DNA of 64,000 nt from Dehalococcoidia bacterium UBA2247 (GCA_002347295.1 DDXZ01000030.1:45216-109215), one strand, 5' to 3'. Shown: positions 12,003 to 54,271, counted from the stretch's first letter. Notes: a model not told the origin generated them from the sequence alone. A program made the numbers and translations.

Positions 12003-12056
12003 CTTCTATTTGATATGGACGGCATTATAACGTTATTTTTATGTCTTTGCAAAGAG

Positions 12057-12094: not shown

Positions 12095-12273
12095 TCCACC
12101 TGTGCATTGGACCAGATAAGACGTAATCGGGATGCCTACCAATTGATGCGTGTAAATACCTGATTCCGTTCACATTTATCTTCATATTTAGAAGGATAAA
12201 TAAGCAAAGAGGTAATGACTCCGGCCGAAAGAGGAAGATTTTCGGTATCAAACGAGGCAGGGTCATTCAGTCA

Positions 12274-13898: not shown

Positions 13899-13908
13899 AA
13901 TAAAAAAA

Positions 13909-13982
13909 TCGGGGCGGGCAGGTTTGAACTGCCGACTTCTTGGTCCCGAACCAAGCGCGCTACCGGGCTGCGCTACGCCCCG
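13909..13982 (-). tRNA. tRNA-Pro (anticodon CGG)
   Basis: The reverse complement folds as a cloverleaf. Acceptor CGGGGCG/CGCCCCG, D-arm GCGC..GCGC, anticodon stem CTTGG/CCAAG with loop TTCGGGA, T-arm GGCAG-TTCAAAC-CTGCC and discriminator A are all present. CCA is not encoded. Confidence 0.8.
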
Positions 13983-14161
13983 TGGATGTACTATTATATC
14001 CGCATATATGAGTGAATACAATCATTTGTAACAACCGGTATGTATATCAATGAATATATGGGGTAAATAAGTTTATCTACCATTAAATTTTCTTAAATGT
14101 TAAAAATTATAAATTTCCCTGTCTGAACATGCTATAATTGCGCAAATTTGAAGGAATAGTA

Positions 14162-15067
14162 TTGGATAAAGTTAGTATTGCAATACCGGCAACTTCAGCA
14201 AATATGGATTCCGGGCTTGATTGCCTGGGAATGGCTTTGAACATTTATAATATAGTTACTTTTATGATAGGTGATATTCCTTGCGGGATTAATATTACCG
14301 GAGAAGGTGCGGAAAAGTTATCGCATGACACCAATAATTTGATTTATTGTACGGCAGTTCGGGTATATCAGAAATTGGGGAAATCAGTACCGGGATTAAC
14401 CATCAACTGTCAAAATAATATTCCCTTTATGCGTGGTCTGGACAGTAGTTCTGCTGCTATTATGTACAGCATTATGGCGGTAAATGAATTTTGTGATAGG
14501 CCGTTTTTTCAGGATGATATGCTGGAGTTGGGGTTGGAAATTGAAGAGCACCCGGATAACATCACTCCGGCACTGCTGGGTGATTGTCAGGTAGTAGTCA
14601 AAGATAGTGATAACCATTTATTACATTGCTCTATACCTCTACCTTCCGGGTTGAAAGCAGTATTATTTATTTCTGATTTTATAATGGCAACAAGGGAAGC
14701 ACGTAATATTTTACCGCAACAAGTGAAACGAGAGGATGCTGTTTATAATGTCGGGCGAGCTGCTCTTCTGATTGCTTCATTAATAGAAGGTCGAGTTGAG
14801 TATTTAAAGACGGCCACCGATGATAGACTGCATCAGACAGCGCGTCAGCGTTTATTCCCGACTATGGGCAATATTTTTGCTGCCGCTCTCTCTGCCGGAG
14901 CATTGGGAGTATTCCTTTCCGGCAGCGGTCCTACTATACTGGCATTTGCTATGGGTAATACAGAAGAAATCGGTAAAAAAATGGCAACAGTTGCCCGAGA
15001 GAAGGGTATTAATGGTAGAATAAGAGTCGCTGAGTCATGTAATGAAGGAGCGCATATTGTTTCTTGA
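14162..15067 (+). CDS. thrB: homoserine kinase
   Basis: The GHMP kinase motif 'PATSANMDSGLDCLG' is present. The likely start is TTG 14162, preceded by RBS GAAGGAA and a TATAAT at 14133-14138. The ORF track extends it to 14138. Confidence 0.7.
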   Translation: MDKVSIAIPATSANMDSGLDCLGMALNIYNIVTFMIGDIPCGINITGEGAEKLSHDTNNLIYCTAVRVYQKLGKSVPGLTINCQNNIPFMRGLDSSSAAIMYSIMAVNEFCDRPFFQDDMLELGLEIEEHPDNITPALLGDCQVVVKDSDNHLLHCSIPLPSGLKAVLFISDFIMATREARNILPQQVKREDAVYNVGRAALLIASLIEGRVEYLKTATDDRLHQTARQRLFPTMGNIFAAALSAGALGVFLSGSGPTILAFAMGNTEEIGKKMATVAREKGINGRIRVAESCNEGAHIVS

Positions 15068-15097
15068 TTTAATAATAGGGGAGAAAATTTAGGGATA

Positions 15098-16324
15098 ATG
15101 GATATTATCGTACAAAAATATGGTGGGACTTCAGTAGCTAATGCGGAGAGAATAAAAGCCGTAGCCCGGAAGATAATCGCTACGAAGGAAAAAGGAAATC
15201 AGGTAGTAGTAGTAGTCTCGGCCATGGGTGATACTACCGATGACCTTATTGCACTCAGTCATCAGGTTTCCGAGAAACCTTCCGATAGGGAACTGGACGT
15301 TCTGCTTTCTACGGGAGAAGTTGTTTCCAGTACTTTACTGGCAATGGCTCTGCGTTCAATGGGATGCAAGTCTATCAGTCTGACCGGATTTCAGGCGGGT
15401 ATTGAGACGGATACAGAACACAGCAAGGCACAAATATTAAATATTAATCCGCAGAGAATCATGCGCGAATTATCCCGCGGGAATGTAGTTATCGTTGCTG
15501 GATTTCAGGGTATAACTCAGGATATGGATATTACTACTCTGGGTCGGGGTGGTTCCGATACTACTGCGGTAGCTCTGGCTGCCAGTTTGGAAGCTAAAAT
15601 ATGTGAAAGATATACCGATGTGAAGGGGGTATTTACTGCTGACCCTAATTATGTTCAGGAAGCGCGTAAATTAGACTTCATTAGTTATGATGAAATGCTG
15701 GAATTAGCAATACAGGGCTCGAAAATAATACATCCCCGGGCGGTAGAACTTGGAGAATTGTATAATGTACCGATTCTGGTAGCATCCAGTTTTGTAGATG
15801 AACCGGGAACGCTGATAAGTGGAGGAAATAATATGCAAGTTGGCGAATTACAGAACAAGGTACGAGGTATTGCTCATGACCTTGATGTGGCGAAAATAAC
15901 AGTTATCGGAGTACCGGACAAGCCCGGTATTTCTGCCAGTATTTTTACTGCCCTGTCCGATGCCGGTGTTAGCGTGGATACTATTGTACAAAATATGAGT
16001 ATCGCCGGAATTACCGACCTTACCTTTACCGTTAGTATCGGTGATATGAATAAAGCACTGGATGTAATTAAGCCAGTAGGAAAAACTATCGGGGCGAAGG
16101 ATTGTGTCGGTGATGACAAAGTAGGTAAGATTAGTATCGTCGGTACCGGAATGCAAAATAAGCCGGGTTATGCTACCACTATGTTCCGCGCCCTGGCCGA
16201 TGCCGGAATTAATATTGAGCTTATCACTACTTCTGAAATACGTATTACCTGTATTATAAGAAAAGACCGAATGAAGGACGCCGTACGTATCCTGCATCGT
16301 GCTTTTGAACTGGATAAGCCATAA
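15098..16324 (+). CDS. lysC: aspartate kinase
   Basis: 'IVQKYGGTSV' N-terminus, amino-acid kinase fold and two C-terminal ACT domains. Confidence 0.85.
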   Translation: MDIIVQKYGGTSVANAERIKAVARKIIATKEKGNQVVVVVSAMGDTTDDLIALSHQVSEKPSDRELDVLLSTGEVVSSTLLAMALRSMGCKSISLTGFQAGIETDTEHSKAQILNINPQRIMRELSRGNVVIVAGFQGITQDMDITTLGRGGSDTTAVALAASLEAKICERYTDVKGVFTADPNYVQEARKLDFISYDEMLELAIQGSKIIHPRAVELGELYNVPILVASSFVDEPGTLISGGNNMQVGELQNKVRGIAHDLDVAKITVIGVPDKPGISASIFTALSDAGVSVDTIVQNMSIAGITDLTFTVSIGDMNKALDVIKPVGKTIGAKDCVGDDKVGKISIVGTGMQNKPGYATTMFRALADAGINIELITTSEIRITCIIRKDRMKDAVRILHRAFELDKP

Positions 16325-16460
16325 TCGTTAATTTCGAGAATCTAATTTCTAAACACATGAAACACATTAGAATTATCGAAATTCTAATGTTCTGAATGCT
16401 TTTACAAAAAAATTTATTGTTTCGTATTTGAGATTTCATATTTCGGGCTTTAGATAGACA

Positions 16461-17501
16461 ATGCATCTTTCAGATTTTGATTATCATCTCCCTCCCGAAT
16501 TCATTGCTCAGACTGCGGTAGAACCACGCGACCGTTCCCGCCTTATGGTACTTAAAAGAGAGTCGGGGACGATTGAGCATCACCATTTCGGGGAAATTAT
16601 AGATTTTCTGCGTGCAGGAGACGTTATGGTTTTTAATGACAGTCGTGTCATTCCTGCGCGCCTGAACGGTCACAAAATAAGTACCGGTGCAAAATGTGAA
16701 ATATTTCTCTTACGTAAACTGGAAAGTTGTGTTTGGGAGACGCTGGTAAAACCAGCCAAGCGCATCCGTACCGGGACTAAAATAGAAATAAGTAATAGTG
16801 ATATTCTATCGGGATTTAGTCTGGAAGGAGAAGTAGTAGAGGAAAAGGAACATGGAGTAAGAATATTCCGCTTTTCCAATGAAGAACTTCTTTTTAAGGC
16901 AGGCAATATACCTTTGCCTCCTTATATTCATGAGAAATTACCTGACCCGGAACGATATCAAACCATTTATTCCAGAGTAGATGGCAGTGTTGCCTCCCCT
17001 ACGGCCGGCTTACATTTTACAGAGAGGCTATTAAATGATATCAAGGCAAAAGGAGTAGAACTGGCTTTTATTACTCTGCATATTGGATTGGGGACATTCC
17101 AGCCAGTACGTGAAGAGGATCCTCTGCAGCATGAAATGCACTCCGAGTATTACGAACTCAGTACTGCTGCTGCGGCACAAATATCCCGAGCCAGGAAAGA
17201 AGGCAGACGTATTATCTGTGTAGGGACTACGACGGTAAGGACACTGGAGCAGGCAGCAGAGTATCAGGATGCCAACGGTAATCTAAAGTCTTCCAGCGGT
17301 TGGACAAAACTATTTATTTTACCCGGTTATAAATTCCGTATGGTAGATATTATGCTGACGAATTTCCATCTTCCGCGTTCCACACTCTTAATGCTTGTTT
17401 CTGCTTTTGCCGGGCATGAAATTCTTATGCAGTCCTACAATGAAGCGATAAAAGAACAATACCGATTTTACAGTCTTGGCGATGCGATGCTAATTTTATG
17501 A
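16461..17501 (+). CDS. queA: S-adenosylmethionine:tRNA ribosyltransferase-isomerase
   Basis: 'LSDFDYHLPPEFIAQ' N-terminus and QueA length and pattern. Confidence 0.85.
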   Translation: MHLSDFDYHLPPEFIAQTAVEPRDRSRLMVLKRESGTIEHHHFGEIIDFLRAGDVMVFNDSRVIPARLNGHKISTGAKCEIFLLRKLESCVWETLVKPAKRIRTGTKIEISNSDILSGFSLEGEVVEEKEHGVRIFRFSNEELLFKAGNIPLPPYIHEKLPDPERYQTIYSRVDGSVASPTAGLHFTERLLNDIKAKGVELAFITLHIGLGTFQPVREEDPLQHEMHSEYYELSTAAAAQISRARKEGRRIICVGTTTVRTLEQAAEYQDANGNLKSSSGWTKLFILPGYKFRMVDIMLTNFHLPRSTLLMLVSAFAGHEILMQSYNEAIKEQYRFYSLGDAMLIL

Positions 17502-25320: not shown

Positions 25321-25358
25321 CGTGTCAACTCAAATAAAAATGTTACCGGAAGAGAGCC
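25321..25358. repeat. 38-bp repeat, inverted copy of 12057..12094, adjacent to the IS5-family remnant
   Basis: Exact reverse-complement identity over 38 bp. It lies between rny and the decayed IS5 transposase. Confidence 0.7.
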
Positions 25359-25513: not shown

Positions 25514-26367
25514 TCAGATAATGAAGCACATCGGAGTTGCCGTAACCAAAGGATGGGTTAGACCGGAACCGGTAGCTTGTCCCATCAGAGCTTGAGCGAA
25601 CCTTAAAAAGATAATTCGGTTCTCTCCTGCTATTAGCGGGATCAGGTGGCTTTGTCTTAATGGGCTGATTATGCTGTTGTTAAAGTGCAATATCCTGCTA
25701 AGTTCGCGTCCTCCTGCCACCGTCTTGTCCCATCCAAAAATCTCCTCGACACGCTTGCGTATCCGTTGGCTCACCTGGTATCCGGAATGTCGAGTAGTAC
25801 GTCCGTCCACAATCGAAGTCTCGCGGCGGGCTACGTGTGGTGTGACTGCCATCGAGCGGCAACTTTTAACGAAATCCTTTGTGTCGTAGTTCTTATCTCC
25901 GCCTACGGTGATCCGTCGCTTCCCCGGTACTTTCCTCAGCATCTCAAACGTAGCGTCCCATCTACAGTGAAGTGGTCTTCTGATAACAGCTCGCGGCCTC
26001 TGGCCTCAGCAAGCACCGCCCCAAGAAACTCCCTAGCTATATCGTGCTCCAGCAGTCTCTCTTTGTTCTTGGAGAACACCGAGTTATCAAAGGCCGGGTC
26101 GATGATGTTCATGTCCATAAACCACTTGAATAACAGGTCATACTGAAGCCGCTCACAGAACTGGCGCTCGCTGCGCACCGAGTAAAGCGCCATCAGCAGA
26201 CATGCTTTCAAAAGGTGCTCCGGCGGTATCGATGGACGCCCAGTCTCGGCGTACATGCGCGTAAATGTGGGTGAAAGCTCGGCTAGCGCCTTGTCCACCA
26301 TCGGCTTGATCTTCCGAATCGGGTGGTCCTCAGGAACCAGGTCATTAGCTGTCACCAGACTCAACAT
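25514..26367 (-). pseudogene. IS5-family transposase remnant (N-terminal DUF772-like part and C-terminal DDE part in different frames, internal deletion)
   Basis: ORF 25936..26367 has the InsH-like N-terminus ('...FTVDGTL'). ORF 25514..25942 has the DDE_Tnp_1 C-terminal part. The two frames overlap by 7 nt and the middle of the domain is missing. Confidence 0.6.
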
Positions 26368-26719
26368 CGTTGTTTAACTGTCCGCTTTCCCTCTCATTGT
26401 GGCCTCCGATAATTTCGTTGGACTTAATCTACCACAATTACCGCACGAAGTCAGCTATTTTAAGGAACTTTTTCAACACCCTGTTAGTTACCGGTGATCA
26501 GGAGTTTCACAAATTTTAGCCGGACTGTAACTTGCAGATAGAATGGCTGGTCAACCAATAATTTGTTCTGACCCCAGTAGTGGAAAAACTGGAGCCTCAG
26601 TTGTATTATCAAAGGGGAGGAACGTCATGTGTTCTTTCGCTTAAGTGATTAAATTTTTAACGTGAGGAATTGTCTTCCCCGCTACGGATAAATATAAAAT
26701 ACTTTTACAGGAGTCTTCA

Positions 26720-27846: not shown

Positions 27847-28911
27847 TGATCTCGTTCAGATAGACAACTGACACTATAATAGTGTCATGAAAATAAGATA
27901 TAACATCGTTAAAGGAAGCTATCAATTAAGCAGATTAGCAATTGATCTGTCTAAAGAAGCGCAAGTCAGACTGAGCTGGTTTGATTCCTACCGGAATCAT
28001 CAGTATAACGCCCGCTTAACTTGCCGACACTTCGGGATATCGCCGCAGACCTTTTATCGCTGGCAGAAACGTTATGATCTTCATCATCGCAAAACTCTGG
28101 AAACCCGTTCCCGCCGTCCAAAGAGAGTGCGCCAACCAACCTATACTCTGGCACAGATTGAAGCCGTACGTAAGGTACGAGAATGTTATCCCCACAGAGG
28201 CAAAGACAAACTGGCGGTAGTGCTACGGGCAGCAGGATATGAATTGTCCGTTTCTCTGGCAGGACGCATCATCCCTTATCTCAAGAAACGTAATGTCTTA
28301 CGGGAATCCATAAGACATAAGGTATCCTCACGCAAATACGGAAGACCGGGACATTATGCCGTTCGTAAACCGCAAGAATACCAGGCGAAACTGCCGGCAG
28401 AATTAGTGCAACTGGATACTATGGATATCCCGCCCCTTACCCGGTATCGTCTTGAAACACTTCTCTTCTTACGATGTCGTCTCCCGTTGGAATGTCCTCG
28501 CTATTTACCATCAAGCTCCCGCGGAGAATGCCGCTCTCTTCTGGGATGATATCCCAAAACGTACTCCCCATATCATCAAATCCATACAGAGCGACGGCGG
28601 TAGTGAATTTCAATTCGGTATTCGAAGAGGAATGCCAAAAACGAAAGAGCAAACTCTTCGTTTTACCACTCCGATCACCCCAACTGAACGGAGTAGTGGA
28701 AAGAGCCAATCGTACCCATGCCGAGGAGTTCTATGAAGTCATTGATAGTACCTTTGACCTTGCAAATATCAGACCTGAACTCTTACAATGGGAACAGGTA
28801 AGTAATACTATCCGTCTCAACCAGGACTTGCGTTATCTCACCCCGCAACAGAATCTGGAGAAATATTATAAGAAGGTAATGTGTCACTAATGTACTGAAC
28901 GAGTACATTTA
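27847..28911 (+). mobile_element. rve-type IS (IS481-like), copy 1, transposase frameshifted
   Basis: Terminal sequences TGATCTCGTTCAG... and ...CTGAACGAGTACATTTA are shared with copy 2. The transposase is split over ORFs 27887..28549, 28452..28736 and 28474..28890, with D/D/E motifs LVQLDTMDI, SDGGSEF and VERANRT. Confidence 0.65.
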
Positions 28912-30623: not shown

Positions 30624-31151
30624 ATGAGAACATTATCCTTTGCCAGCTTAGTCTATGAACAGAAGAAAAAGAAAACCCGACGGGAACAATTTCTGGAAGA
30701 GATGGACGAGGTTATTCCCTGGGAAGCTATGGTGAAAATCATCCGTCCATATTATCCAAAAGCAGGCAACGGACGTCAACCAATGCGGTTGGAGATGATG
30801 CTGAGGATATACTTCCTGCAGCAATGGTATGGTCTGTCAGACCCTGCGATGGAAGATGCGCTCTACGATATAGAAGCGATAAGGCGATTTGCGGGAATTG
30901 ATCTTCAAACGGATGCGGTGCCTGACGAAACGACGATATTGCACTTTCAACACCTTTTGGAGAAGTACAAACTGACGGAGAAGTTGTTTGAGCAGTCGCG
31001 GCGATATCTCATAGACAAGGGATTGATGGTAAGAGAGGGAACGATAGTTGATGCCACGATACTGAATGCGCCCTCAGCGACGAAAAACAAGGGAAATGCT
31101 CGTGATAAGGAGATGAAGCAGACCAAGAAAGGGGAGCTAATAGTTCCTTGA
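30624..31151 (+). pseudogene. IS5-family transposase, N-terminal ~175-aa fragment
   Basis: It is strongly IS5-like: 'YPKAGNGRQPMRLEMMLRIYFLQQWYGLSDPAMEDALYDIEAIRRFAGIDL...GTIVDATILNAPSATKNKGNARDKEMKQTKKG'. The ORF stops there and the C-terminal half of the DDE domain is absent. Confidence 0.7.
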
Positions 31152-31660
31152 AAACCTGCACTACCTCTGCTACACTGATTTCTACTTTCATAGGCGCTTC
31201 TCCTTTCTTATTGTTTTATTTCTTTCAATAAAACCTTGTAAAGGAAAGCGCCCTATTTTCAATCCCCCGCAATTTCACACAAAAAATTTTACACTACCGG
31301 CAATAGGGGATATGTTTTTTTTGCAGTGACACCAGGTCATGGGATGCAAATGCTCTGGGTAGAGAATCCGGCAGTAGTGGCCGACAAGAACGGCTTCTTA
31401 AAGAGTGGTTGGGTCGTCGCTTCTATTGGTGATGTACTCAATACAATTGTCGGATTGTCAAAGAAGATAAACTCCAGCGACTGGCGGGAGGCGGTAGCTT
31501 GGATTGCGACATATGGAGACTGTCGTTTCTCGTAATTTCGACGTCGAAACATAGGACAGTAACCATTTGAATTCGGTGTCCTATATTCTATCGGAGACAA
31601 TGGATATAGTCTCTTTTAGCTACGAAATAGCATCAACACTGATTTCAACCAGCCCTTTTA

Positions 31661-31678
31661 TGGTGGAGACGGGGGAGA
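31661..31678. repeat. 18-bp direct repeat copy A (tggtggagacgggggaga), tRNA-3'-end-like
   Basis: It is identical to 40007..40024. On the minus strand it reads TCTCCCCCGTCTCCACCA. Confidence 0.6.
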
Positions 31679-32008
31679 GTAGATCTCTCTCTAAAATAAA
31701 TTCTTCTCATGTTAGTGAATTAGTAAACATGAGTGGTGCATCGAATGTAATTCCTTCTTTTGTTTGATCCAGCTTTGTCATAATACAATTAATTACGAAT
31801 CAGTCTAACATGTTCGTGTATTTTGCCCTTATGTTAGATAAGATGCCGTGTAACATGTAAAGTGTTGCTAATCTGTCAAACAGGGACAAAACAGGGACGA
31901 GTTCCGTGTCGTTCTTGATAAGCAAATTAAAAGGGAATATAATCGCCCCCAACCACAAAGTACTAAGAATTGCCAACCGCTGGTTCCCTAAGCTAAAAGG
32001 AGGATGAT

Positions 32009-32554
32009 ATGTCGATTGATAACCTGTCTATTGTGCAGAAGATTCTAGATAATGAGAACCTTTTGGCTCAGCGTGCCGACCAGAAAGCAATATCTTTATT
32101 GTCAATCCTGGGAGTATTCATGGTGTTCTTTATTATTAATTATCGCGTTATCCCGGTAAACATATTTACTATAATATTAATTGTTTTATATTTTTTAGGG
32201 GCTATCTTGTCTATTATTAACCTTCTGATGGCTATCCGTCCCCGGGTACGGGTAGAAATCAGCGACATGAAAGTAAGAAATAATATGCCCGCTCATGATC
32301 CCGCCTTTTTTGGTGGTATTTGTAATTATCCCCATGCCTCTGCTTATAAAGAGGCTCTAAATCAGGTGATTGGAGACGAAGCCACTATCATGGATATTTA
32401 CATCCGTCAAATTTATACTGTAGCCCAGATTAATGCATCAAAATATATGCATGTCCAGCGTGGTGTATTACTGGTAGTGACCACATTATCCATTGAATTC
32501 GCTCTTATCGTTTATCTCTTTATATCATTTTGGGGAGCAGGGAAAATACAATAA
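32009..32554 (+). CDS. small membrane protein (2 N-terminal TM helices, ~95-aa soluble region, C-terminal TM)
   Basis: The hydrophobic segments 'ISLLSILGVFMVFFIINY', 'IFTIILIVLYFLGAILSIINLLMAI' and 'VLLVVTTLSIEFALIVYLFISFW' are present. No domain recognised. Confidence 0.4.
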   Translation: MSIDNLSIVQKILDNENLLAQRADQKAISLLSILGVFMVFFIINYRVIPVNIFTIILIVLYFLGAILSIINLLMAIRPRVRVEISDMKVRNNMPAHDPAFFGGICNYPHASAYKEALNQVIGDEATIMDIYIRQIYTVAQINASKYMHVQRGVLLVVTTLSIEFALIVYLFISFWGAGKIQ

Positions 32555-32602
32555 TTTCTTAAAGATTTAAATGCAAAAGTATTACTGTAGTAATATTCCA
32601 GA

Positions 32603-34450
32603 TCAATTGTTATCTTTTATTTTTATTACTCTGTAGACAGTAACCGGTGCTGTTTTCCCTTTGAACGTCTGCGGTTCCATGATTTCACTCTCAATATATT
32701 CCTTTGTTTGCGCATATGTTTCCGGACCAATCCATACTTCACCACCCGGCGTGACACTGCAAATACGAGAGGACAGATTAACAGTATCTCCGATAACAGT
32801 ATATTCTACCCGTCCGGCAGAACCGACGTTGCCGGCTAAAGCTTTCCCGGTGTTGATACCGATACCAAACTGAACAATAATACCCCCCGGTTTGTCTTGC
32901 TGTAATTTTTTCAGTTTCTCCTGCGCTTCCAGGGCTGTTTTTACCGCCAGCAAAGCGTGTTTTTGTTGAGAGTAAGGGGCATTCCAGAGCGCCATAACAT
33001 TGTCCCCGGCAAATTTATTGATGATACCGCTATTTTCCATGGTGGTATCTATCACCGCTCCGAGATAAGTATTTAACATTTGCACCACTTCTGCAGGGGA
33101 GAGGCGTTCACTGATACGGGTAAAATTACGCATATCCGCAAAGAGAATAGTGACCTCTCTTTCTTCACCACCCAGGTCCAGTTTCCCGCAATTTGCCAGA
33201 CTGATTATGCTTTCCGAAATCTGGGGCGAAACATACCTCCCGAAGAGTCCTTTTACAAACTGTTTATCTGATTGTTCCGTTATCAGCATATAAATAACGT
33301 TACCAATGTACAGTACCAATAATAACAATAACGGATAAAGAATATTCATGATATACCCTTTACCGGCCATAACCGTACCCGCAATTATGTAACAAAGAGA
33401 TAAACCTATTACAATACCCGTTACCTTTACTATGTCCCTCCAGCTCCATGTTCCGCAGCGAGACCAAACAAGTGCCGTGATAAAAGTGAGGAGCAGCATT
33501 AACAATACTGTGATACTCATACCAACCGGTCTTAAGAAATTCTGTTGCAGAATAGTGTCCATGGCCGCCGCATGAATATAAATTCCCGGAACTTTAGCTG
33601 CCATATTGGGAATAGGCCAGACATCCAATTCTCCGGTAGCCGTCATACCAATTATCACTACTTTACCTTTAACCAGTGACGGATCAAAGTTTCCCCGGAT
33701 GATATCTCCATAAGAAATATAAGGACGACTTACGTGCCCGGCACTAAAGTTAATCAACAGGGAATAATATTCTTCTACCGGAACATTACGGGCAATCAAA
33801 TAGAGAGAACCCTCTGTCAGTGCATATTGCTCCGGTAAAGGCATGCGGAATAAAGAATGAAGTACTGCGAGAGTAAGTGAGGGGTGGATTTGCCCTGCGT
33901 AATCTTCTACTACTAACGGTAAATGACGTACCTTACCATCAGAATCAGGAATTACATTAGCATGTCCTGTATTCAGAGAAGCTTCTTCTAACAGTTCCGC
34001 CGGTAATAAAAAATTAGTGTAAGTAATCATATTTTCCGCTGGGATACTCCCCGTCCCGGTTTCTGCCAGAACAACATTACCGGCATTAAGCATGGCAGCA
34101 GCCATACTCTCATCATCAGGAGAACTATCGGTAAAAAGAACATCAAATCCAATCACCCTTGCTCCCGCCTGACTGAGGTTATTTACTGCTTCTGCATGCA
34201 GTGAGCGCGGCCACTCCGACCATCTGCCATAAGTCTCCAGAGTATCATCATCGATACCGGCAATAATGATGTTGGGAGATAGCGAACCGGAAGGATAAAA
34301 CTGGTCTGATGTCCATAAATTAATGTTATGTAGCGGTTGCACCAGAGCCAGAATGAGAACAGAGATGCATCCTGTTATAGCAATTGCCAGGGCATGAAAC
34401 AGACGCTTATGCTGCCGCCGATTTTTCAGAACTTTATGTAAAAATGCCAT
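32603..34450 (-). CDS. CHASE2 sensor domain-containing class III adenylate/guanylate cyclase
   Basis: The N-terminal TM and CHASE2 pattern ('IIIAGIDDDTLETYGRWSEWPR...VIGFDVLFTD') is present. TM helices follow, then a C-terminal cyclase homology domain ('VTILFADMRNFTRISE...FAGDNVMALW'). Confidence 0.75.
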   Translation of the reverse strand: MAFLHKVLKNRRQHKRLFHALAIAITGCISVLILALVQPLHNINLWTSDQFYPSGSLSPNIIIAGIDDDTLETYGRWSEWPRSLHAEAVNNLSQAGARVIGFDVLFTDSSPDDESMAAAMLNAGNVVLAETGTGSIPAENMITYTNFLLPAELLEEASLNTGHANVIPDSDGKVRHLPLVVEDYAGQIHPSLTLAVLHSLFRMPLPEQYALTEGSLYLIARNVPVEEYYSLLINFSAGHVSRPYISYGDIIRGNFDPSLVKGKVVIIGMTATGELDVWPIPNMAAKVPGIYIHAAAMDTILQQNFLRPVGMSITVLLMLLLTFITALVWSRCGTWSWRDIVKVTGIVIGLSLCYIIAGTVMAGKGYIMNILYPLLLLLVLYIGNVIYMLITEQSDKQFVKGLFGRYVSPQISESIISLANCGKLDLGGEEREVTILFADMRNFTRISERLSPAEVVQMLNTYLGAVIDTTMENSGIINKFAGDNVMALWNAPYSQQKHALLAVKTALEAQEKLKKLQQDKPGGIIVQFGIGINTGKALAGNVGSAGRVEYTVIGDTVNLSSRICSVTPGGEVWIGPETYAQTKEYIESEIMEPQTFKGKTAPVTVYRVIKIKDNN

Positions 34451-34480
34451 AATTTAAATTATGCTCGACCTTAACTTTAT

Positions 34481-35707
34481 TTAATCAAGAGCTTGCCATT
34501 CGTAAGCTCCTATGTCAGTAACCCCATTATAAGGACGAACCTGTCCCACAATATCAAAAAGTGGCGCATTTACATTGGTACCGCTGTCAATACAGGGAGA
34601 ACTTTGTGTCAGATTAAAATTGTTGAATTCCGGATAGACGAATAGTGGGTCAGCACTGATATTATCCTCGCCGTCATAACCATTCTCAATATCGGAATAG
34701 GTGACTGTGATAGTGTTTTCATCATCTGTGACAATGTCGTACGGTGTATTATTATCCCAAATAATGGTGTTTGTTATCGTTATTGCCGTGGCACTATTGT
34801 TTAAAGTACCACCTAACTCGCTCATATTATTGGAGAACGTGCAGTTGGTTAGCACAAGAGCATTAGAAACAGTAGCAATTGCCGCGCCCGCAGAATAAGC
34901 ACTGTTACCCGTAAACAGGCAGTTGGTGAAGACAACATCTGATGCATCATCGTACACTGCACCGCCTTCAGTACCAGAAAAGTTACTGATAAATATGCAG
35001 TTGGTGAAGATAGCATCCGATATTTCATTATAGACCGCACCGCCGCAGTTCAGAGGAATAGAACTAGTGGACATATTACTGGAAAATATACAGTCGGAGA
35101 CTAACAATGCAGACTGGTAATTATAGAGCGCGCCACCGGAAAGAGCAGCATTTCCAAAGAAGGCGCAGTGTCCGATAACAAGCGTGGAATTCTCACAATA
35201 AATCCCTCCACCCAGACCATCTATATCTTCTCCGGAGGCATTTCCTCCCGTAATACTGAATCCATCCAGTACACCACTAACACCGGAACTATAGATTACG
35301 TGGTAACAATTAGCAATATCAATCTGGCCGCTGAGAACAGTGATATTCGTCTGCCAATCCCGCCCTGCGAGGGAAGCTTCTGTACCGTCAAAATCACCAT
35401 AAAGAGAAACACCATCTTTTAATGGGAAAGACACTGTACCACCAATTTCTACAGAGGGATAATATGTTCCGGACGCCACCCATATCTGGTCACCGCTGCC
35501 ACTAAGATCCAGGGCACTCTGCAAACTATTAAATGCATCTACCCAGGAAGAACCATCATTAATCCCCTGAGCATTGGTATTAACAAAAATCACTCTGGTA
35601 AACATAACCACATTATCACTGCTGCTGGAAGCAGCATTAGTATTACCAGCAGCATCCGAAGCGACACCGGCACCAATAGTCGCCATTACTGTGCCGCTGG
35701 CGGTCAT
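34481..35707 (-). CDS. parallel beta-helix protein with Pmp-like GGA(I/L/V) repeats, probably the C-terminal part of the same surface protein
   Basis: The repeats 'GGAIY/GGALYN/GGAVYN/GGAVYD' and 'FxxN' are typical of polymorphic-membrane-protein/pectin-lyase-fold proteins. There is no signal peptide. Its frame is open upstream into the preceding ORF ('...GGSGGTGTTYNIAVSGMTASG'). Confidence 0.55.
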   Translation of the reverse strand: MTASGTVMATIGAGVASDAAGNTNAASSSSDNVVMFTRVIFVNTNAQGINDGSSWVDAFNSLQSALDLSGSGDQIWVASGTYYPSVEIGGTVSFPLKDGVSLYGDFDGTEASLAGRDWQTNITVLSGQIDIANCYHVIYSSGVSGVLDGFSITGGNASGEDIDGLGGGIYCENSTLVIGHCAFFGNAALSGGALYNYQSALLVSDCIFSSNMSTSSIPLNCGGAVYNEISDAIFTNCIFISNFSGTEGGAVYDDASDVVFTNCLFTGNSAYSAGAAIATVSNALVLTNCTFSNNMSELGGTLNNSATAITITNTIIWDNNTPYDIVTDDENTITVTYSDIENGYDGEDNISADPLFVYPEFNNFNLTQSSPCIDSGTNVNAPLFDIVGQVRPYNGVTDIGAYEWQALD

Positions 35708-37419
35708 ACCGCTAACTGCAATATTATAAGTTGTCCCCGTCCCACCACTTCCACCGTCGTTGCCCCTGCCGTACCGCTGAGAGTAACATCTTCTGACGTA
35801 AAACCGGTCACCGCTTTACTAAAGACAGCGGTAAAATTAACCGATGTATTTGTCGTAGGATCAACCTGGTTTATCCCCTGATTAATAGTAACGGTGGGAA
35901 TTAAGGTATCTTTAACAGCCGTGGTACTACCTGCTTCACTGATATTGCCAGCGGCATCAGTAAGAATAAGGGAAACTGTTAATTTACCGTCTGCAAGACT
36001 ACTGACATTTATATTACTAATGCTAAAAATTCCGGAACCATCCACGATAGCAGAACCGGTAACAGCAACACCCCCGGCAATATCACTGATACTGTAATTT
36101 ATAGTAGCCCCTGCCTCTCCTGAACCAGATAATATCACACCAGCCTGATTACCATAATTAACGGGATCCGTAAGATAAATTGAGTAGGGCGCGCCCGGGA
36201 CCGTAGTATCCAGAATAATACTATGCGTATAATTAATTGACCAGTTACCATATGAATCCTGATACTGCACGGCAACTGTCTTGCTACCATCCCCGGAAGG
36301 AAGTGGCCAGATAATATCGGCGCTATAACTGGTATGACTACTACTGAAGCTTGTAGTTGATGACTCTGAGGCATCCGTACCATTAGCTACCCGGTATCCC
36401 GTCACTCCACTTGAGTCTGATGCATACAAGTTTAAACTAACATCCAGATTGTTAGTATGAGAGACACCACTATTAATATTTAATGAACCGGAGGGTCCCG
36501 TAACATCAGCAGGGGAATAATAAACCACTACCGGCTCCGGTGTAGGGCTGGGCGTTGGTTCCGGAGTTGGAGTTGGCGTGGGCTCCGGGGTTGGTTCCGG
36601 CGTCGGAGTGGGTGTGGGCTCCGGGGTTGGAGTTGGTGTCGGCGGTGGAGCCGGTTCCGGTTCGCTGGGTGGTTCACTCGGCGCAATAAAACTTTGCATC
36701 CCTGGCGGTACATAAACTGCTATACCCTGCGCAATCGCCACTATTGTGCCTTCCCTGTTTATCACTGTAACCAGGCCGCTGGCCGCGATTATTAAATTCA
36801 AAATACTACCCCTGACTGCTGCTACACCATCAGGGGTTTCAATCTCATAGCGTGACGATGAATCAACAAGTTTTTTAACATTGCTGACAGTTTCACCAAT
36901 ACTCTGCTTTAAAAGAATAGTGGTGGAACCCGTATCCGAAATACTCAATTCAGATACATCAATTTGTGTATTTGCCATTAATTCTATGGTGCTGCCATCA
37001 AAAAAAGTAATAATGGCACGGGAACCATCACCCGCTTTAATTTTATCCCGGGGAATTATCGTAGTACCAACCTGAGCTTCTACCCAGGCACTGGAGCCCG
37101 ACTTCAGAACAAATACGCTCCCTTCACTGATAGAAAGCATGGTTAGAGGAGTAGCGTCGATTATTTGTGCTGGTGTAGCAGTGGGTGCAGTTGTTTTTGC
37201 AGGCACTGGCGAAGAAGTTGCCGCTGCTGTTTTTGTTGGTGATGCCGTAGCAGCAGATGAAGACCCGGATGTGGTGTCCGACGGCACTACTGTAGAGGAA
37301 TCTACCGGAAATGGTGTTGTCTTTTGCTGCTGATTACAACCAGTCAGTAAAGTACCTGCCAGTAGAATAACAATCAGAATTATAATCAGTAGCTGGTGTA
37401 AATATTGTTTTGGGGACAT
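35704..37419 (-). CDS. surface lipoprotein, N-terminal part (lipobox signal, FecR-like domain, Pro/Thr repeat linker, Ig-like domains)
   Basis: The lipobox 'LLAGTLLTGC' and a FecR-like 'VFVLKSGSSAWVEAQ...GDGSRAIITFFDGSTIELMANTQIDV' segment are present. A (PTPTPEPT)n linker follows. The reading frame continues into the next ORF after a frame change. Confidence 0.6.
   Translation of the reverse strand: MSPKQYLHQLLIIILIVILLAGTLLTGCNQQQKTTPFPVDSSTVVPSDTTSGSSSAATASPTKTAAATSSPVPAKTTAPTATPAQIIDATPLTMLSISEGSVFVLKSGSSAWVEAQVGTTIIPRDKIKAGDGSRAIITFFDGSTIELMANTQIDVSELSISDTGSTTILLKQSIGETVSNVKKLVDSSSRYEIETPDGVAAVRGSILNLIIAASGLVTVINREGTIVAIAQGIAVYVPPGMQSFIAPSEPPSEPEPAPPPTPTPTPEPTPTPTPEPTPEPTPTPTPEPTPSPTPEPVVVYYSPADVTGPSGSLNINSGVSHTNNLDVSLNLYASDSSGVTGYRVANGTDASESSTTSFSSSHTSYSADIIWPLPSGDGSKTVAVQYQDSYGNWSINYTHSIILDTTVPGAPYSIYLTDPVNYGNQAGVILSGSGEAGATINYSISDIAGGVAVTGSAIVDGSGIFSISNINVSSLADGKLTVSLILTDAAGNISEAGSTTAVKDTLIPTVTINQGINQVDPTTNTSVNFTAVFSKAVTGFTSEDVTLSGTAGATTVEVVGRGQLIILQLAV
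36528..36672 (-). repeat. coding tandem repeat (Pro-Thr-Glu linker: PTPTPEPT units)
   Basis: Near-perfect short tandem nucleotide units (ggctccggggttgg/agttggtgtg...) encode PTPTPEPTPTPTPEPTPEPTPTPTPEPTPSPTPEP. Confidence 0.6.
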
Positions 37420-37633
37420 TTTAATTCCTGCTTATCATAAAAATCTTAATATGAATAATTTTTCTTATATCTTATATATAGAACTACCGGTAAATCTCAG
37501 CAAAACACATTTATTTCCCGGTAATAATACATCTTTTCTGCTATAACTTCATCAGAAAATATGGCATCTGCTTTTCTGATTATTAACTTACTATAATACG
37601 TTCCCCCGGTATAGAACCTGTGTCCCAATTTAT

Positions 37634-38401
37634 TTATATAAATAATTTTTGGTCTTCCGTGACGATATTAATAACCGTTCCCAGTTCCCTGGCTACCATT
37701 TCCAATTCTTTTCTAATGGCTTTTTCATATCGAGGATACAAGTGTACTACGGCAATTTGCGGTAAATAGCCCTTCACCTTATGAAATTCCATTAATTCTA
37801 TCTTTAACAGACCGGGACACAGGTGTTCCGCCTCCAGGGCAGTTTTACCAAGCTTATCGGGATAAGTAGTATCGATAATTAATAATTGGGGTGCAATATT
37901 CTCCCATATTGCTGTCAACCCGGGACCAGTATCACCGGTATAAAATACGCACTTTCCTTCCTTACTTATTACAAAGCCGGTGGCAGGCAGAGGATGATTT
38001 ACGGGGACAGGCATTACAATATAACCATTTACTTCTACACTTTTAAATAGTTTTATCGAAATTAATTGCAGAGCCTTATTTTTCAAAAAAGCAACTTTTT
38101 CAGAGAATGCCGGATATATTTTACCGTCTATGAGATGTGATTTTAGCATATCAAGGGTCTCTGCCAAAGCAAAAACAGGGGTGGTTCGACTCGAATTATT
38201 GAAGGCATAAGTCGGCATACCGCAGAGATGGTCATAATGTCCGTGTGATAAAAATATAGCTTTAATCTTTTTCTGCTCTGTAAAAGAGAGCCCGGTAGTA
38301 ATACTACCAGCATCCAAAACTATAATATTATCAATTAAAACCGATACCAGTCTTGCACTATCAGACTCGGAGTTATGCGTTCCTAAAAATCTAATTTCCA
38401 A
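37634..38401 (-). CDS. MBL-fold metallo-hydrolase
   Basis: 'HGHYDH' metal-binding motif and beta-lactamase fold pattern. Confidence 0.65.
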   Translation of the reverse strand: MEIRFLGTHNSESDSARLVSVLIDNIIVLDAGSITTGLSFTEQKKIKAIFLSHGHYDHLCGMPTYAFNNSSRTTPVFALAETLDMLKSHLIDGKIYPAFSEKVAFLKNKALQLISIKLFKSVEVNGYIVMPVPVNHPLPATGFVISKEGKCVFYTGDTGPGLTAIWENIAPQLLIIDTTYPDKLGKTALEAEHLCPGLLKIELMEFHKVKGYLPQIAVVHLYPRYEKAIRKELEMVARELGTVINIVTEDQKLFI

Positions 38402-38811
38402 TTCTTAACATCCTGTAAATAATTATTAATCCCTCTTTAACAAAAACCGTCTTTAATACACCGATACTTTCATATTTTGGGTCATATCTACGAAGAAAAC
38501 GTAAATTTATACCGCTAATCTCAAGTCAATATATTTACTATTAAAATAATTGTCAAGGAATAATAATAGTACTTTTGTTCAAACACAGTTGAAAGATTAA
38601 ACCCGCCACTATGAGCGACGGGATTCCCCAATTCACACTGATAATCTTATTTCTCCCAATGTCTTGATGAAATATTTACAGCAGGAATATAATAACGTCC
38701 AGCATACCACCAATTCCGCCAGGAAAAAACTACAGTCTCAGAAGTGGACTGATTAGAGACGGATTATTGGTATATAATAAGCATTAAGAAGAATATTTGA
38801 GGACACAACAA

Positions 38812-39819
38812 ATGTACCGCAAGTTTATAAAGCCTGGAATAATAGTAGCGATAGTATTAATCGTGGGAACAATTGGATACTGGTTTATCGGAGACAAACA
38901 ATATTCTTTTCTTGATGCTTTCTATATGACCTTTATTACTATCGCCACGATAGGATATGGCGAAATTATCGATCTCAGCGGTAATCCCTGGGGCAGAGTA
39001 TTTACTATGATTATCACCGTCTGCGGACTGGGAACAATATTATATGTTATCACTAATTTGACTGCCCTCATTGTAGAGGGAGACCTCAGGCAATCTTTCA
39101 GGAGAAGAAAAATGGAAAAAATGATCAGCAATTACGAGAACCATTTCATCGTGTGCGGTATTGGTGAAGCGGGATTTCATATCGTAAACGAGCTTTATGC
39201 CACAAAGAGGCTATATGTTGCCGTTGATACAAGCAGGAATCACCTGGAAAGCAGCCTGGAGACATTTAAGGATGAAGTATTCATACAGGGAGATGCTACC
39301 GACAGCGAAGTATTAATAAAATCCGGAATTATGAAGGCCAGAGGATTATTTGCCGTAACCGCGGACGATAATCAGAATCTGGTGATAATTATTACAGCAA
39401 AACAACTTAATCCCTCTTTAAGAATAGTAGCACGATGTAATCAAATCAAAAACAGCGATAAGATGAGAAGAGTCGGTGCTAATTCCGTAATTTCTCCCAG
39501 TTTTATCGGTGGACTAAGAATGGCTTCAGAAATGATTCGGCCGGTGACCGTTTCATTTCTGGATATAATGCTACGGGATAAAGAGAAAGGGTTGCGCGTT
39601 GAAGAGATTTCCGTACCAGACTCATTTGTGGGGAAGGCTATATCTACTTTAAACATGAAGAAATACTCTCATTCTTTGTTACTCGCGATAAAGATTAAGG
39701 ATAAGGACGGCTGGATCTACAATCCAGCCGGTGACTATCTCATTCAACCCGGAAACACTCTTATTTTTATGACTAATCCGGAAGAGCGCTATAAGCTGGA
39801 AGATATTTTTAATAGCTGA
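38812..39819 (+). CDS. potassium channel protein with RCK/TrkA domains
   Basis: Two TM helices flank the selectivity filter 'TIATIGYGE'. A Rossmann 'CGIGEAGFHIV' TrkA-N and a TrkA-C follow. The start is ATG 38812 with a GAGGA RBS. Confidence 0.7.
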   Translation: MYRKFIKPGIIVAIVLIVGTIGYWFIGDKQYSFLDAFYMTFITIATIGYGEIIDLSGNPWGRVFTMIITVCGLGTILYVITNLTALIVEGDLRQSFRRRKMEKMISNYENHFIVCGIGEAGFHIVNELYATKRLYVAVDTSRNHLESSLETFKDEVFIQGDATDSEVLIKSGIMKARGLFAVTADDNQNLVIIITAKQLNPSLRIVARCNQIKNSDKMRRVGANSVISPSFIGGLRMASEMIRPVTVSFLDIMLRDKEKGLRVEEISVPDSFVGKAISTLNMKKYSHSLLLAIKIKDKDGWIYNPAGDYLIQPGNTLIFMTNPEERYKLEDIFNS

Positions 39820-40006
39820 TAATTTTTCCCTGTTAATCAATTCGAGATAGGGTAAGGTCAATATTAAAGAAACAAAATCAATCGTGGCAATAAAACCTAA
39901 ACCGCCCTTTGCTCCCATCTTTCAGGTGGCAATAATGCGTGAGAGAGCTGGTATCAAATTAGTGAATGAGCCTCAGGAAATTACCCCTGAGGCTCAGAAT
40001 TGTTTC

Positions 40007-40024
40007 TGGTGGAGACGGGGGAGA
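40007..40024. repeat. 18-bp direct repeat copy B (tggtggagacgggggaga) with an adjacent T-loop-like GAATTGAAC
   Basis: It is identical to copy A. The minus strand reads GTTCAATTCTCCCCCGTCTCCACCA, a tRNA T-loop/acceptor/CCA-like 3' end with a degenerate T-stem. Confidence 0.6.
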
Positions 40025-40463
40025 ATTGAACTCTACCTGAAACAATCTGAAGTCATCCGTTATAATTAAATGAGCTTATAAGAAGTTGTGGAAATTGATG
40101 ACGCATTGATAAAGAAAGGCGTATCCTTCCAGTAAGAGAAAAATCCATATAAAGAATGGCGGGATAACGCCCTTTACCTGGTATTCAAGATCATACAGCG
40201 GCTAAGCCGGAACTGGAGAACTCTCAATGGTGGTGCCAATTTGATGACCCTGGTACTGGAGGGACGGGAGTTTAAAGATGGCATCCTGCAGCGAGAAAAG
40301 GTAGCCGAGCTGGCAGGGGTAAGGAGTTAATGATCAACGGTGCTGGAAGGAATTTCCACAACATTTGACAAGAGCTCTACGATTGACCATATGATATTCT
40401 TATGTTAGTATAGAAATAAATATTATGTATGATTTGGTTAGTACCTATGTATGTTAAGCTCTT

Positions 40464-53106: not shown

Positions 53107-54271
53107 TAAATGTACTCGTTCAGTTCATTGGTGACACATTACCTTCTTATAATATTTCTCCAGATTCTGTTGCGGGGTGAGATAACGCAAGTCCTGGTTG
53201 AGACGGATAGTATTACTTACCTGTTCCCATTGTAAGAGTTCAGGTCTGATATTTGCAAGGTCAAAGGTACTATCAATGACTTCATAGAACTCCTCGGCAT
53301 GGGTACGATTGGCTCTTTCCACTGCTCCGTTCAGTTGGGGTGATCGGGGTGGTAAAACGAAGAGTTTGCTCTTTCGTTTTTGGCATTCCTCTTCGAATAC
53401 CGATTGAAATTCACTACCGCCGTCGCTCTGTATGGATTTGATGATATGGGGAGTACGTTTTGGGATATCATCCCGGAAGAGAGCGGCATTCTCCGCGGGA
53501 GCTTGATGGTAAATAGCGAGGACATTCCAACGGGAGACGACATCGTAAGAAGAGAAGTGTTTCAAGACGATACCGGGTAAGGGGCGGGATATCCATAGTA
53601 TCCAGTTGCACTAATTCTCCCGGCAGTTTCGCCTGGTATTCTTGCGGTTTACGAACGGCATAATGTCCCGGTCTTCCGTATTTGCGTGAGGATACCTTAT
53701 GTCTTATGGGTTCCCGTAAGACATTACGTTTCTTGAGATAAGGGATGATGCGTCCTGCCAGAGAAACGGACAATTCATATCCTGCTGCCCGCAGCACTAC
53801 TGCCAGTTTGTCTTTGCCTCTGTGGGGATAACATTCCCGTACCTTACGTACGGCTTCAATCTATGCCAGAGTATAGCAGGGTGTTGAAAAACCTTGTTTT
53901 GGATTAAAAAGGGGTGTTGGCTAGGCACGAATTTTGGATGATTTTCACGCATTTTGCCTTTTTCAACACCCTGATAGGTTGGTTGGCGCACTCTCTTTGG
54001 ATGGCAGGAACGGGTTTCCAGAGTTTTGCGATGATGATAATCATAACGTTTCTGCCAGCGATAAAAGGTCTGCGGCGATATCCCGAAGTGCCGGCAAGTT
54101 AAGCGGGCGTTATACTGATGATTCCGGTAGTAATCAAACCAGCTCAGTCTGACTTGCGCTTCTTTAGACAGAACAATTTCTAATCTGCTTAATTGATAGC
54201 TTCCTATAACGATATTATATCTTATTTTCATGACACTATTATAGTGTCACTTATCTATCTGAACGAGATCA
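53107..54271 (-). mobile_element. rve-type IS (IS481-like), copy 2, inverted relative to copy 1, carrying a MITE insertion
   Basis: It has the same termini and transposase as copy 1 (ORFs 53797..54231, 53468..53797 and 53125..53565 on the minus strand). It is ~101 bp longer because of the insertion at 53877-53973. Confidence 0.65.
53877..53973. mobile_element. MITE-like element (~97 bp) inserted into IS copy 2
   Basis: 15-bp terminal inverted repeats cagggtgttgaaaaa / tttttcaacaccctg are present. It is absent from the otherwise collinear copy 1. The flanking CTAT is duplicated (ccaacCTAT|MITE|CTATactc versus ccaacCTATactc in copy 1). Confidence 0.6.

Follow-up and report, generated by a model that had tools for sequence, protein, structure and literature searches.

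An 8.3-kb segment between two copies of the tmRNA 3' end is probably a decayed ssrA-specific integrative island

In a 64-kb stretch of DNA from Dehalococcoidia bacterium UBA2247 (the whole stretch that was analyzed, hereafter the window), two identical 18-bp sequences flank an 8.3-kb segment in direct orientation, which raises the question of what element left them and which gene it had used as its target. A sequence-only reading had taken them for attL and attR of an element integrated at the 3' end of a minus-strand tRNA gene that has since degenerated. Our analysis retains one part of this, namely att-type scars around an integrated element that has lost its integration functions, but replaces the target, which is ssrA (the tmRNA gene) and not a tRNA gene. 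The segment is probably what is left of an integrative island of the Dehalococcoidia type that was specific for ssrA and has since decayed.

The exact 18-mer TGGTGGAGACGGGGGAGA (plus strand) is present exactly twice in the window, at 31661-31678 (copy A) and 40007-40024 (copy B). No further copy was found in the window when up to 3 mismatches were allowed, and the pair is its sole exact direct repeat of at least 18 nt. The repeats noticed by the sequence-only reading are thus real, and the similarity is even wider, reaching 43 nt (31657-31699 and 40003-40045, 35 of 43 positions identical); its minus-strand reading, with both copies ending in ...CUCCCCCGUCUCCACCA and with GUUCAAUUC in copy B, is also correct. 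Because some exact 18-mer direct repeat also arose in 12 of 200 simulated windows (first-order Markov; ~6%), the exact pair by itself is not overwhelming evidence. Outside the 18-nt core, 17 of 25 flanking positions are alike (p ~1e-4).

On the minus strand the 18-mer reads TCTCCCCCGTCTCCACCA, and 78 of its 123 occurrences in GTDB species genomes show a native tmRNA T-arm context (Chloroflexota/Dehalococcoidia genomes), while the listed occurrences outside Chloroflexota are without it. The tmRNA genes predicted by ARAGORN in Dehalococcoidia loci terminate exactly on this 18-mer. At one native locus (L151), the order is smpB, ssrA (Rfam, 149 bits), core, GAAACAC, hairpin and recombinase relic, and the DNA of this locus is 79% identical to window positions 39861-40033. 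L151 and the window lineage are close in tetranucleotide composition (r = 0.93), which would fit a single organism but does not discriminate, as another Dehalococcoidales locus scores 0.906. To judge from the matches to tmRNA genes, each of the two repeats reproduces the final 18 bases of ssrA. Neither ssrA nor smpB was found in the 64-kb window or rightward to coordinate 71077 (~7 kb beyond), and we infer the link of the repeats to the host's own ssrA.

The core of copy B (40007-40024, minus strand) matches the last 18 nt of ssrA exactly. In place of the 5' strand of the ssrA T-stem, copy B has a left, P-type arm, ATTGTTTCAGGTAGAGTTCAAT (40025-40046, minus strand), which agrees with the published motif of McMurdie et al., TTCAGRSMGMRKCCA, at 13 of 15 positions, and whose outermost 8 nt recur in inverted orientation at 39999-40006. 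The latter positions are the right, P'-type arm, GAAACAAT (minus strand), which comes straight after CCA; GAAACAC or GAAACAA follows the core both at native ssrA loci with an adjoining recombinase and at P-core-P' sites. An intact version of the element would be expected to have the arms AATTGTTTC and GAAACAATT. The P-type arm stands on the side where the body of ssrA would be expected, as at junctions within tandem island arrays, and the same arm architecture is found at five other loci. The window and strain L126 cease to be homologous exactly at the outer edge of this arm. Beyond the right arm there is a 13-bp hairpin (39967-39996, minus strand; -23 kcal/mol, z = -5.7), whose T-run has decayed; its homologue in islands is a terminator-like hairpin placed behind ssrA. 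Homologous hairpins, with compensatory changes, are present at five loci, including L151, where a T-run follows. By its sequence, copy B has all parts of a 48-bp attP-like site (left arm, core and right arm), together with the conserved hairpin.

Copy A is the more degraded att site, at the distal end of the island. Its core (31661-31678, minus strand) is the same ssrA 3' 18-mer, with one substitution (17/18) in sibling strains, and its diverged P-type arm, TTTATTTTAGAGAGAGATCTAC (31679-31700, minus strand), lies in register with that of copy B. The two aligned arms are identical at 14 of 22 positions, and the arm of copy A agrees with TTCAGRSMGMRKCCA at 11 of 15. Neither a hairpin nor a recombinase was found at copy A. 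Homology to the sibling strains runs ~350 nt beyond copy A, so this copy is not itself a strain breakpoint. A 69-aa ORF beside it has no homologues outside its own cluster and was of no use for tracing an ancestral attB. Patterns specific to copy B and to copy A gave no match in a metagenome collection, which lacks this lineage.

The statement of the sequence-only reading that no integrase remains inside the segment overlooked the C-terminus of a serine recombinase. A relic of ~66 codons from a DsiB-type large serine recombinase lies at 39851-40069 (plus strand), with its frame reading antisense through the core (..CFWWRRGRIEL..). Residues 475-541 of the recombinase of L108, a protein with Resolvase, Recombinase and Zn_ribbon_recom domains, match 39857-40048 at 45% identity (E = 2e-14, tblastn), and eight more recombinase-frame ORFs from seven loci match the relic stretch. 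Full-length homologues of the recombinase at five loci abut the ssrA 3' end or the repeat and read toward it, and a second resolvase-domain match lies just past the first recombinase in three of them. Four other loci show the same arrangement of recombinase and ssrA end. The DsiB-type feature is thus putatively present as a relic, correct in position, strand and overlap with the att site, by comparison with homologues that are full-length at ssrA in other genomes. When all ORFs from 14 recombinase-bearing loci were searched against the window with tblastn, the recombinase C-terminus was the sole match, and neither this search nor Pfam analysis of the ORFs in the block found DsiA, RecF-like, ParB, Mom-like or primase-domain genes. 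With no other part of the integration module left, the element is unable to move by itself.

The island body between the two cores comprises 8328 nt (31679-40006). The cargo genes listed by the sequence-only reading were confirmed inside it, and Pfam and PADLOC place there a PycTM gene (32009-32554, plus strand), a CHASE2 cyclase (32603-34450, minus), a PMP beta-helix protein (34481-35707, minus), a FecR/Big protein (35704-37419, minus), an MBL hydrolase (37634-38401, minus) and an RCK K+ channel (38797-39819, plus), the end of the channel gene being only 31 nt from the start of the recombinase relic. The GC content of the block is that of its flanks, without compositional contrast. The six cargo genes may all have come in with the element.

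PycTM, the CHASE2 cyclase and the MBL hydrolase form a cyclic-nucleotide cargo. In the Pycsar anti-phage system, a pyrimidine cyclase and a cNMP-activated effector are encoded in one operon. Here, PycTM models match the 181-aa protein (7.6e-19), PycC models match only the generic cyclase domain of the CHASE2 sensor cyclase, and the two genes are convergent, not co-oriented. The label 'Apyc1' for the MBL protein came from precomputed tables only; it was rejected, as neither a Pfam scan nor a search of PDB sequences bore it out.

A mechanism of integration can be proposed by homology with intact relatives. The island would have been a circular element with an attP of ~48 bp spanning the 3' end of its own large serine recombinase gene, in the order arm P, copy of the ssrA 3' end and arm P' (GAAACAA/C). 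The recombinase and a small partner resolvase would cross this attP with the T-loop region of ssrA, by which ssrA would gain a new, identical 3' end and an element-borne terminator hairpin, and the original 3' end would come to lie beyond the far edge of the island, forming a direct repeat. Copy B is the recombinase-proximal site and copy A the distal one. Later, the array would have come away from ssrA by IS-associated rearrangement. The repeats are drifting neutrally, as the single substitution of copy A in sibling strains shows.

The two repeats might instead be scars of two separate integrations, so that the intervening DNA is not one island. Copy B and the recombinase relic could, for instance, be the last traces of one element and copy A part of another, while the six genes, or some of them, came later or are resident in the chromosome. 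The reduction of the recombinase to 66 codons so close to the end of the K+ channel gene shows that a deletion or replacement took place there, and the differing arms of copies A and B, the lack of GC contrast and the tandem arrays with several repeats that are the norm among ssrA islands are all consistent with two events. However, the order and orientation suit a single island, one repeat having the end of the recombinase beside it and the other just a P arm, and the unit 31307-40046 is intact while both flanks vary between strains. On balance, two separate integrations seem unlikely.

It is very improbable that the target was a minus-strand type II Ser/Leu tRNA gene with acceptor GGAGACG, of which copy B would be the degenerated remnant. 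This idea came from a repeat that ends in an acceptor stem plus CCA, and from the T-loop-like GTTCAAT in copy B. However, the acceptor pairs as GGGGACG/CGUCUCC with a G3:U70 wobble, as in the tmRNA of L151, and GUUCAAU belongs to the island-derived left arm, the sequence 5' of it being a conserved island arm and no decayed T-stem. ARAGORN found no tRNA or tmRNA at either copy, and relaxed covariance-model searches of both repeat regions (Rfam, even at E<=10) returned nothing tRNA- or tmRNA-like. The 78 tmRNA 3' ends in Chloroflexota genomes and the adjoining recombinase relic of the ssrA-island type also argue against a tRNA. According to the sequence-only reading, the same block in relatives with no tRNA nearby, together with many genomic copies of the 18-mer, would indicate a dispersed repeat; relatives do carry the block without a tRNA nearby, but the 18-mer is not a dispersed repeat. 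A chance repeat, or a short dispersed REP- or MITE-like repeat without any integration, is hardly credible despite the frequency of such pairs in the simulations, in view of just two copies in the window at up to 3 mismatches, no copy at the relatives' other loci (the purC regions of the window strain and a distant relative, and the sibling plsX regions), the alike flanks, and a sequence that is a tmRNA terminus with a recombinase relic attached.

The flanks of the decayed ssrA island differ between strains on both sides. On the left, a DUF772 (IS5-type) transposase fragment and the left rearrangement junction occupy 30624-31306 (plus strand), and homology to the sibling strains begins at 31307; the ORF of this fragment (30624-31151) is the truncated IS5 transposase that had been noticed just outside copy A. 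On the right, a 5'-truncated, weakly IS256-like transposase fragment with an internal stop in its translation (40047-40364, plus strand) joins copy B to the plsX region. This label is tentative, with weak tblastn matches to IS256 family transposases (E = 0.01), and the fragment has no Pfam match. Homology to the plsX region of three other loci begins at 40365. Because independent short-read assemblies break inside 40106-40348, the join of the block to plsX may be chimeric, through an IS copy.

In the sibling strains the same block stands beside purC, and their plsX adjoins dedA. Rearrangements associated with IS elements seem to have relocated the block. Every sampled relative of the lineage carries the block, and no genome with an empty site was found among them. 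A relative with 80% identical purC has no block beside purC, and no ssrA was found beside purC in this relative or in the window's own strain. Among 120 listed homologues of purC from the sibling contig, all those with organism names are labeled Chloroflexota/Chloroflexi or Dehalococcoidia/Dehalococcoidales, which places the lineage in Chloroflexota. A simple insertion of the unit 31307-40046 that split one IS was rejected, as the left fragment is of the DUF772/IS5 type, the right one is IS256-like, and no terminal inverted repeats were seen at the unit ends.

Because the strain breakpoint falls exactly at the outer edge of copy B, this attP-type site stranded from ssrA might still be, or recently have been, a substrate for DsiB-type recombinases in trans, and translocated array fragments could seed ssrA-independent secondary landing pads, a proposal that we consider unlikely. 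If it were true, the module on this pad would be Pycsar-like and coupled to a sensor, consisting of the CHASE2 cyclase, the PycTM effector and an MBL phosphodiesterase-like protein that act on cyclic nucleotides.

Islands of this kind are known from Dehalococcoides (ssrA-GIs; McMurdie et al., 2011, PMC3146451) and from Dehalogenimonas (PMC13390414). The ssrA-GIs are recognized by ~20-bp direct repeats of the ssrA 3' end at their edges, with repeats within ~100 kb downstream of ssrA, and by the 15-bp motif TTCAGRSMGMRKCCA directly upstream of the repeat, in place of the ssrA T-stem. In Dehalococcoides, the overlap of DsiB with attL is a stated hallmark, and DsiB is described as homologous to CcrB and as having a second, small serine recombinase for its partner (PMC3146451). 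The window island is a decayed member of this already known family. It shares with the Dehalococcoides and Dehalogenimonas islands the ssrA 3'-end repeats at its edges, the motif upstream of the repeat, a large serine recombinase by attL, encoded on the opposite strand so that its 3' end runs into the att site, junctions with island arms on both sides, and a host from class Dehalococcoidia or related Chloroflexota. Unlike them, it keeps only 66 recombinase codons and has no DsiA, ParB, Mom or primase genes, its array does not adjoin smpB-ssrA, and it shows no low-GC contrast. The cargo is cyclic-nucleotide signaling and membrane proteins instead of reductive dehalogenases, and the host belongs not to Dehalococcoides but to an uncultured lineage of low GC (41%) found in methanogenic cultures that degrade hydrocarbons.

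More distant likenesses exist as well. The SCCmec/CcrAB cassettes of staphylococci also insert at the 3' end of an essential single-copy gene that does not encode a tRNA, and short direct repeats remain afterwards, but their target is rlmH (orfX) and not ssrA, and the host phylum differs. The ssrA-targeting prophages and islands of other phyla (Williams' sublocations) likewise use the tmRNA 3' end as attB and bring an element-borne replacement 3' end, whereas they usually use tyrosine integrases and not a large serine recombinase.

With this assignment, the annotation of the locus is corrected to scars from serine-recombinase integration at a tmRNA gene, with no decayed tRNA. The ssrA-island family, best known for the spread of dehalogenases in Dehalococcoides and Dehalogenimonas, would gain an uncultured low-GC Chloroflexota host and a different cargo. 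The locus would also illustrate the end state of ssrA islands, with an integrase stub, drifting repeats and an array carried off from ssrA by IS elements, and the combination of 18-mer, GAAACA arms and hairpin is usable as an annotation signature for fossil ssrA islands. In addition, ssrA lies close to one end of a 22-kb IMG/VR viral contig in a Dehalococcoidia-type genome, and close to its other end there is a 21-nt repeat including the same 18-mer.

The 18-nt sequence TGGTGGAGACGGGGGAGA occurs in two exact copies on the plus strand at 31661-31678 (copy A) and 40007-40024 (copy B), and no third copy was detected in the window with up to three mismatches allowed. It is the sole exact direct repeat of at least 18 nt in the window; by itself the pair is weak evidence, because some exact 18-mer direct repeat was also present in 12 of 200 first-order Markov simulations. 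The likeness extends beyond this core (31657-31699 versus 40003-40045, 35 of 43 positions identical), with agreement at 17 of 25 flanking positions (p about 1e-4). The sequence-only reading had taken the copies for attL and attR of an element integrated at the 3' end of a minus-strand tRNA. The repeat pair is real and its arrangement right, but the target differs: the only find of ARAGORN and Rfam in the window is a tRNA-Pro (13909-13982), and the relaxed covariance search it proposed (Rfam, E<=10, both repeat regions) returned no tRNA or tmRNA match.

When the 18-mer was scanned across one genome per GTDB species, at least 120 loci were matched, and those listed came mainly from Dehalococcoidia and other Chloroflexota. 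The reverse complement, TCTCCCCCGTCTCCACCA, stands in the native context GGACGGGGAGTTCRAY-TCTCCCCCGTCTCCACCA at 78 of the 123 listed occurrences and forms the exact terminus of ARAGORN-predicted tmRNA genes. This context is absent from the listed matches outside Chloroflexota, which look coincidental. Given the tmRNA context and predicted gene ends, the repeat is the 3' end of ssrA, the tmRNA gene, comprising the T-stem 3' strand, the acceptor 3' strand and ACCA. A tRNA-targeting element was rejected on this ground.

The native arrangement of ssrA and an island end is seen in locus L151, a contig from ENA record ERZ27315071 (organism of 40% GC), whose number is close to those of the records with the window strain and its relatives (ERZ27315034/56/59). 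In this locus smpB is followed by ssrA, the core, GAAACAC, the hairpin and a recombinase relic, and window 39861-40033 is 79% identical to it at the DNA level. The acceptor pairing of its tmRNA is GGGGACG/CGUCUCC with a G3:U70 wobble, in place of the GGAGACG acceptor proposed earlier. This tmRNA (L151 2915-3270, beside smpB) was found by Rfam with 149 bits and missed by ARAGORN, so the lack of an ARAGORN tmRNA call cannot be fully trusted in this lineage.

On the minus strand, copy B reads ATTGTTTCAGGTAGAGTTCAAT / TCTCCCCCGTCTCCACCA / GAAACAAT, followed by a hairpin. Its left arm is non-ssrA sequence agreeing at 13 of 15 positions with the motif TTCAGRSMGMRKCCA; in Dehalococcoides, McMurdie et al. 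found this motif upstream of the direct repeats of ssrA and assigned it to the island side of the T-loop crossover (PMC3146451). The outer 8 nt of the arms form a perfect inverted repeat, ATTGTTTC / GAAACAAT (9 nt in sibling strain L126), and other genomes have the same layout with co-varying arms, e.g., CCGTGTTTC / GAAACACGG and CGGTGTTTC / GAAACACCG. The 13-bp hairpin (39967-39996, -23 kcal/mol, z = -5.7) is homologous to those after the core wherever a recombinase adjoins; in L151 it lies right behind the intact ssrA, followed by a T-run, and shows compensatory changes (GAGCC/GGCTC versus GATCC/GGATC). The hairpin would act as a terminator, and we infer that the island brought this terminator as well as a new 3' end for ssrA. 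Copy A reads TTTATTTTAGAGAGAGATCTAC / core / TAAAAGGGCTGG on the minus strand. Its left arm is a diverged arm of the same type, in register with that of copy B (14 of 22 identical, by reading) and agreeing with TTCAGRSMGMRKCCA at 11 of 15 positions; after its core there is no GAAACA arm, hairpin or recombinase. The P arm of copy B may have come from a tandem array. In sibling strains the core of copy A carries one substitution (TCTTCCCC), so the perfect match of the two cores in the window is not being maintained.

The earlier statement that no integrase remains overlooked a stub at 39851-40069 (plus strand), which encodes ..IVAIKPKPPFAPIFQVAIMRERAGIKLVNE..CFWWRRGRIELYLK, the C-terminal relic of a serine recombinase. 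By tblastn, residues 475-541 of a 578-aa ORF adjoining the repeat in L108 (Pfam: Resolvase, Recombinase, Zn_ribbon_recom) matched 39857-40048 (45% identity, E 2e-14), and eight more recombinase-frame ORFs matched the stretch (L062, L093, L052, L151, L119, L089, L088). Database search with the relic returned only C-terminal fragments of this family. Of all ORFs from 14 recombinase-bearing loci, matches beyond the relic were limited to a queA-type gene (16527-17498) and a hydrolase gene (60226-61077), both outside the block. Homologous recombinase genes lie directly beside the 3' end of ssrA, or beside its repeat, and are oriented toward it, also in L031, L080, L083 and L116; they are full-length in L052, L062, L093, L131 (IMG/VR viral contig) and L136 (integrated viral contig). 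In L062, L093 and L131 a second resolvase-domain match lies just past the first. The whole layout is that of DsiB/DsiA in the ssrA islands of Dehalococcoides, in which the dsiB 3' end always overlaps attL (PMC3146451). The relic residues FWWRRGR are simply the tmRNA terminus translated antisense. Only 31 nt separate the truncated recombinase from the end of the K+ channel gene, which implies one or more deletions or replacements at this point. The element cannot excise autonomously. Similar P-core-P' sites with N-terminally truncated recombinases exist in other Dehalococcoidia (L119, L089, L151), so such fossil ssrA-island sites seem common; at L119 (3261-3393 and neighbours) the recombinase lacks residues 1-175 and adjoins a queA-type gene.

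The structure of the att sites, the recombinase relic, homology with ssrA loci that are occupied, and the breakpoints between strains are all directly observed, and the 8.3-kb block is very probably a decayed representative of the ssrA-specific genomic islands known from Dehalococcoides (PMC3146451) and Dehalogenimonas (PMC13390414). Unlike those, it lies in a different Chloroflexota lineage, with other cargo and away from ssrA, and so extends the known family in lineage and cargo; its six cargo genes may not all have arrived together. It would work like SCCmec/CcrAB cassettes, through a circular intermediate, with a DsiB/DsiA pair making the T-loop crossover in the manner of CcrAB. Neither an empty site nor a circular junction was found in the sequences compared. 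The block shows no GC contrast to its surroundings and is carried by all sampled relatives of the window lineage, so the event is old or the donor had similar composition. That lineage is Chloroflexota: with purC of sibling-strain contig L138 as a query, all organism-named homologues among the 120 listed were labelled Chloroflexota/Chloroflexi or Dehalococcoidia/Dehalococcoidales (60-64% identity), and the window's RNase Y region and IS3-like end also resemble Chloroflexota loci.

Relatives came from methanogenic hydrocarbon-degrading cultures. A JGI contig (3300002821 Iso3TCLC_10002495; contig coordinate = window coordinate + 45213) is 99.98% identical over the 22 kb compared and collinear where checked. 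In sibling strains (L126/L138, L139, and L140 from MAG GCA_002383345.1) the block has an overall identity of 96% and homology covers 31307-40046; to its left are a small ORF, purC, purB, purE, purD and guaA, and on the right homology stops precisely at the copy B arm's outer edge. There, 355 apparently non-coding nt in L126 (1-355), with no match in the window, abut the arm before the contig ends. In GCA_002383345.1 and two other assemblies, the stretch from plsX to rpsB matches the window from 40365 on with 99.3-99.5% identity, and dedA, proB and proA, not the block, precede plsX. The window's own strain (L147/L148, from the same sample, 10903-16400) has a 151-aa ORF, an AEP-TOTE/DEAD primase-helicase gene and the AbiE genes AbiEii/AbiEi after purC, and its homology to the sibling strain stops 66 nt before the left edge of the block, which makes the purC-proximal site a variable hot spot. 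The block is bordered by an IS5-type fragment left of 31307 and a 5'-truncated, weakly IS256-like transposase fragment (40047-40364). Adjacency of smpB and ssrA is conserved across Dehalococcoidia loci, and neither gene was found in the window or as far as coordinate 71077. IS-associated rearrangements probably moved this piece of an ssrA-island array away from ssrA. Three independent short-read assemblies break within 40106-40348, which suggests that this transposase fragment has further copies in the genome or community, so the join of block and plsX rests on the JGI contig, the window itself and a 98-nt overlap of two contigs; the joins there in the window and the near-identical JGI contig could be chimeric.

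IS elements are abundant in the window (25514-26397; 27887-28890 and 53107-54271; 61264-62400). Among them are an IS5-type copy and an IS3-type element with a second copy at 95.6-98.4% identity. Another IS3-type left end shares 82% identity with one from a Dehalococcoidales MAG (L117), and a 32-nt repeat (12063-12094 and 25321-25352) also occurs in L127.

The cargo genes at 32009-38401 seem to form a self-contained cyclic-nucleotide set. The gene for a small membrane protein of the PycTM family (Pfam 1.6e-12, PADLOC 7.6e-19) is convergent with that of the CHASE2 sensor cyclase, whose catalytic domain matches PADLOC PycC models (3e-24). The MBL hydrolase is labelled PF23023 Anti-Pycsar_Apyc1 in precomputed tables; in our own Pfam scan it matched just Lactamase_B_2 and, below threshold, a class-II PDE, and no PDB sequence match was obtained. 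Most of the 8.7-kb unit is 97-100% identical between the window and L138, while the PMP beta-helix gene (34307-35506) is only 74-80% identical, with indels, and the CHASE2-encoding stretch (~32800-33400) is also lower (about 95-96%). The divergence of the beta-helix surface protein points to allelic replacement or diversifying selection.
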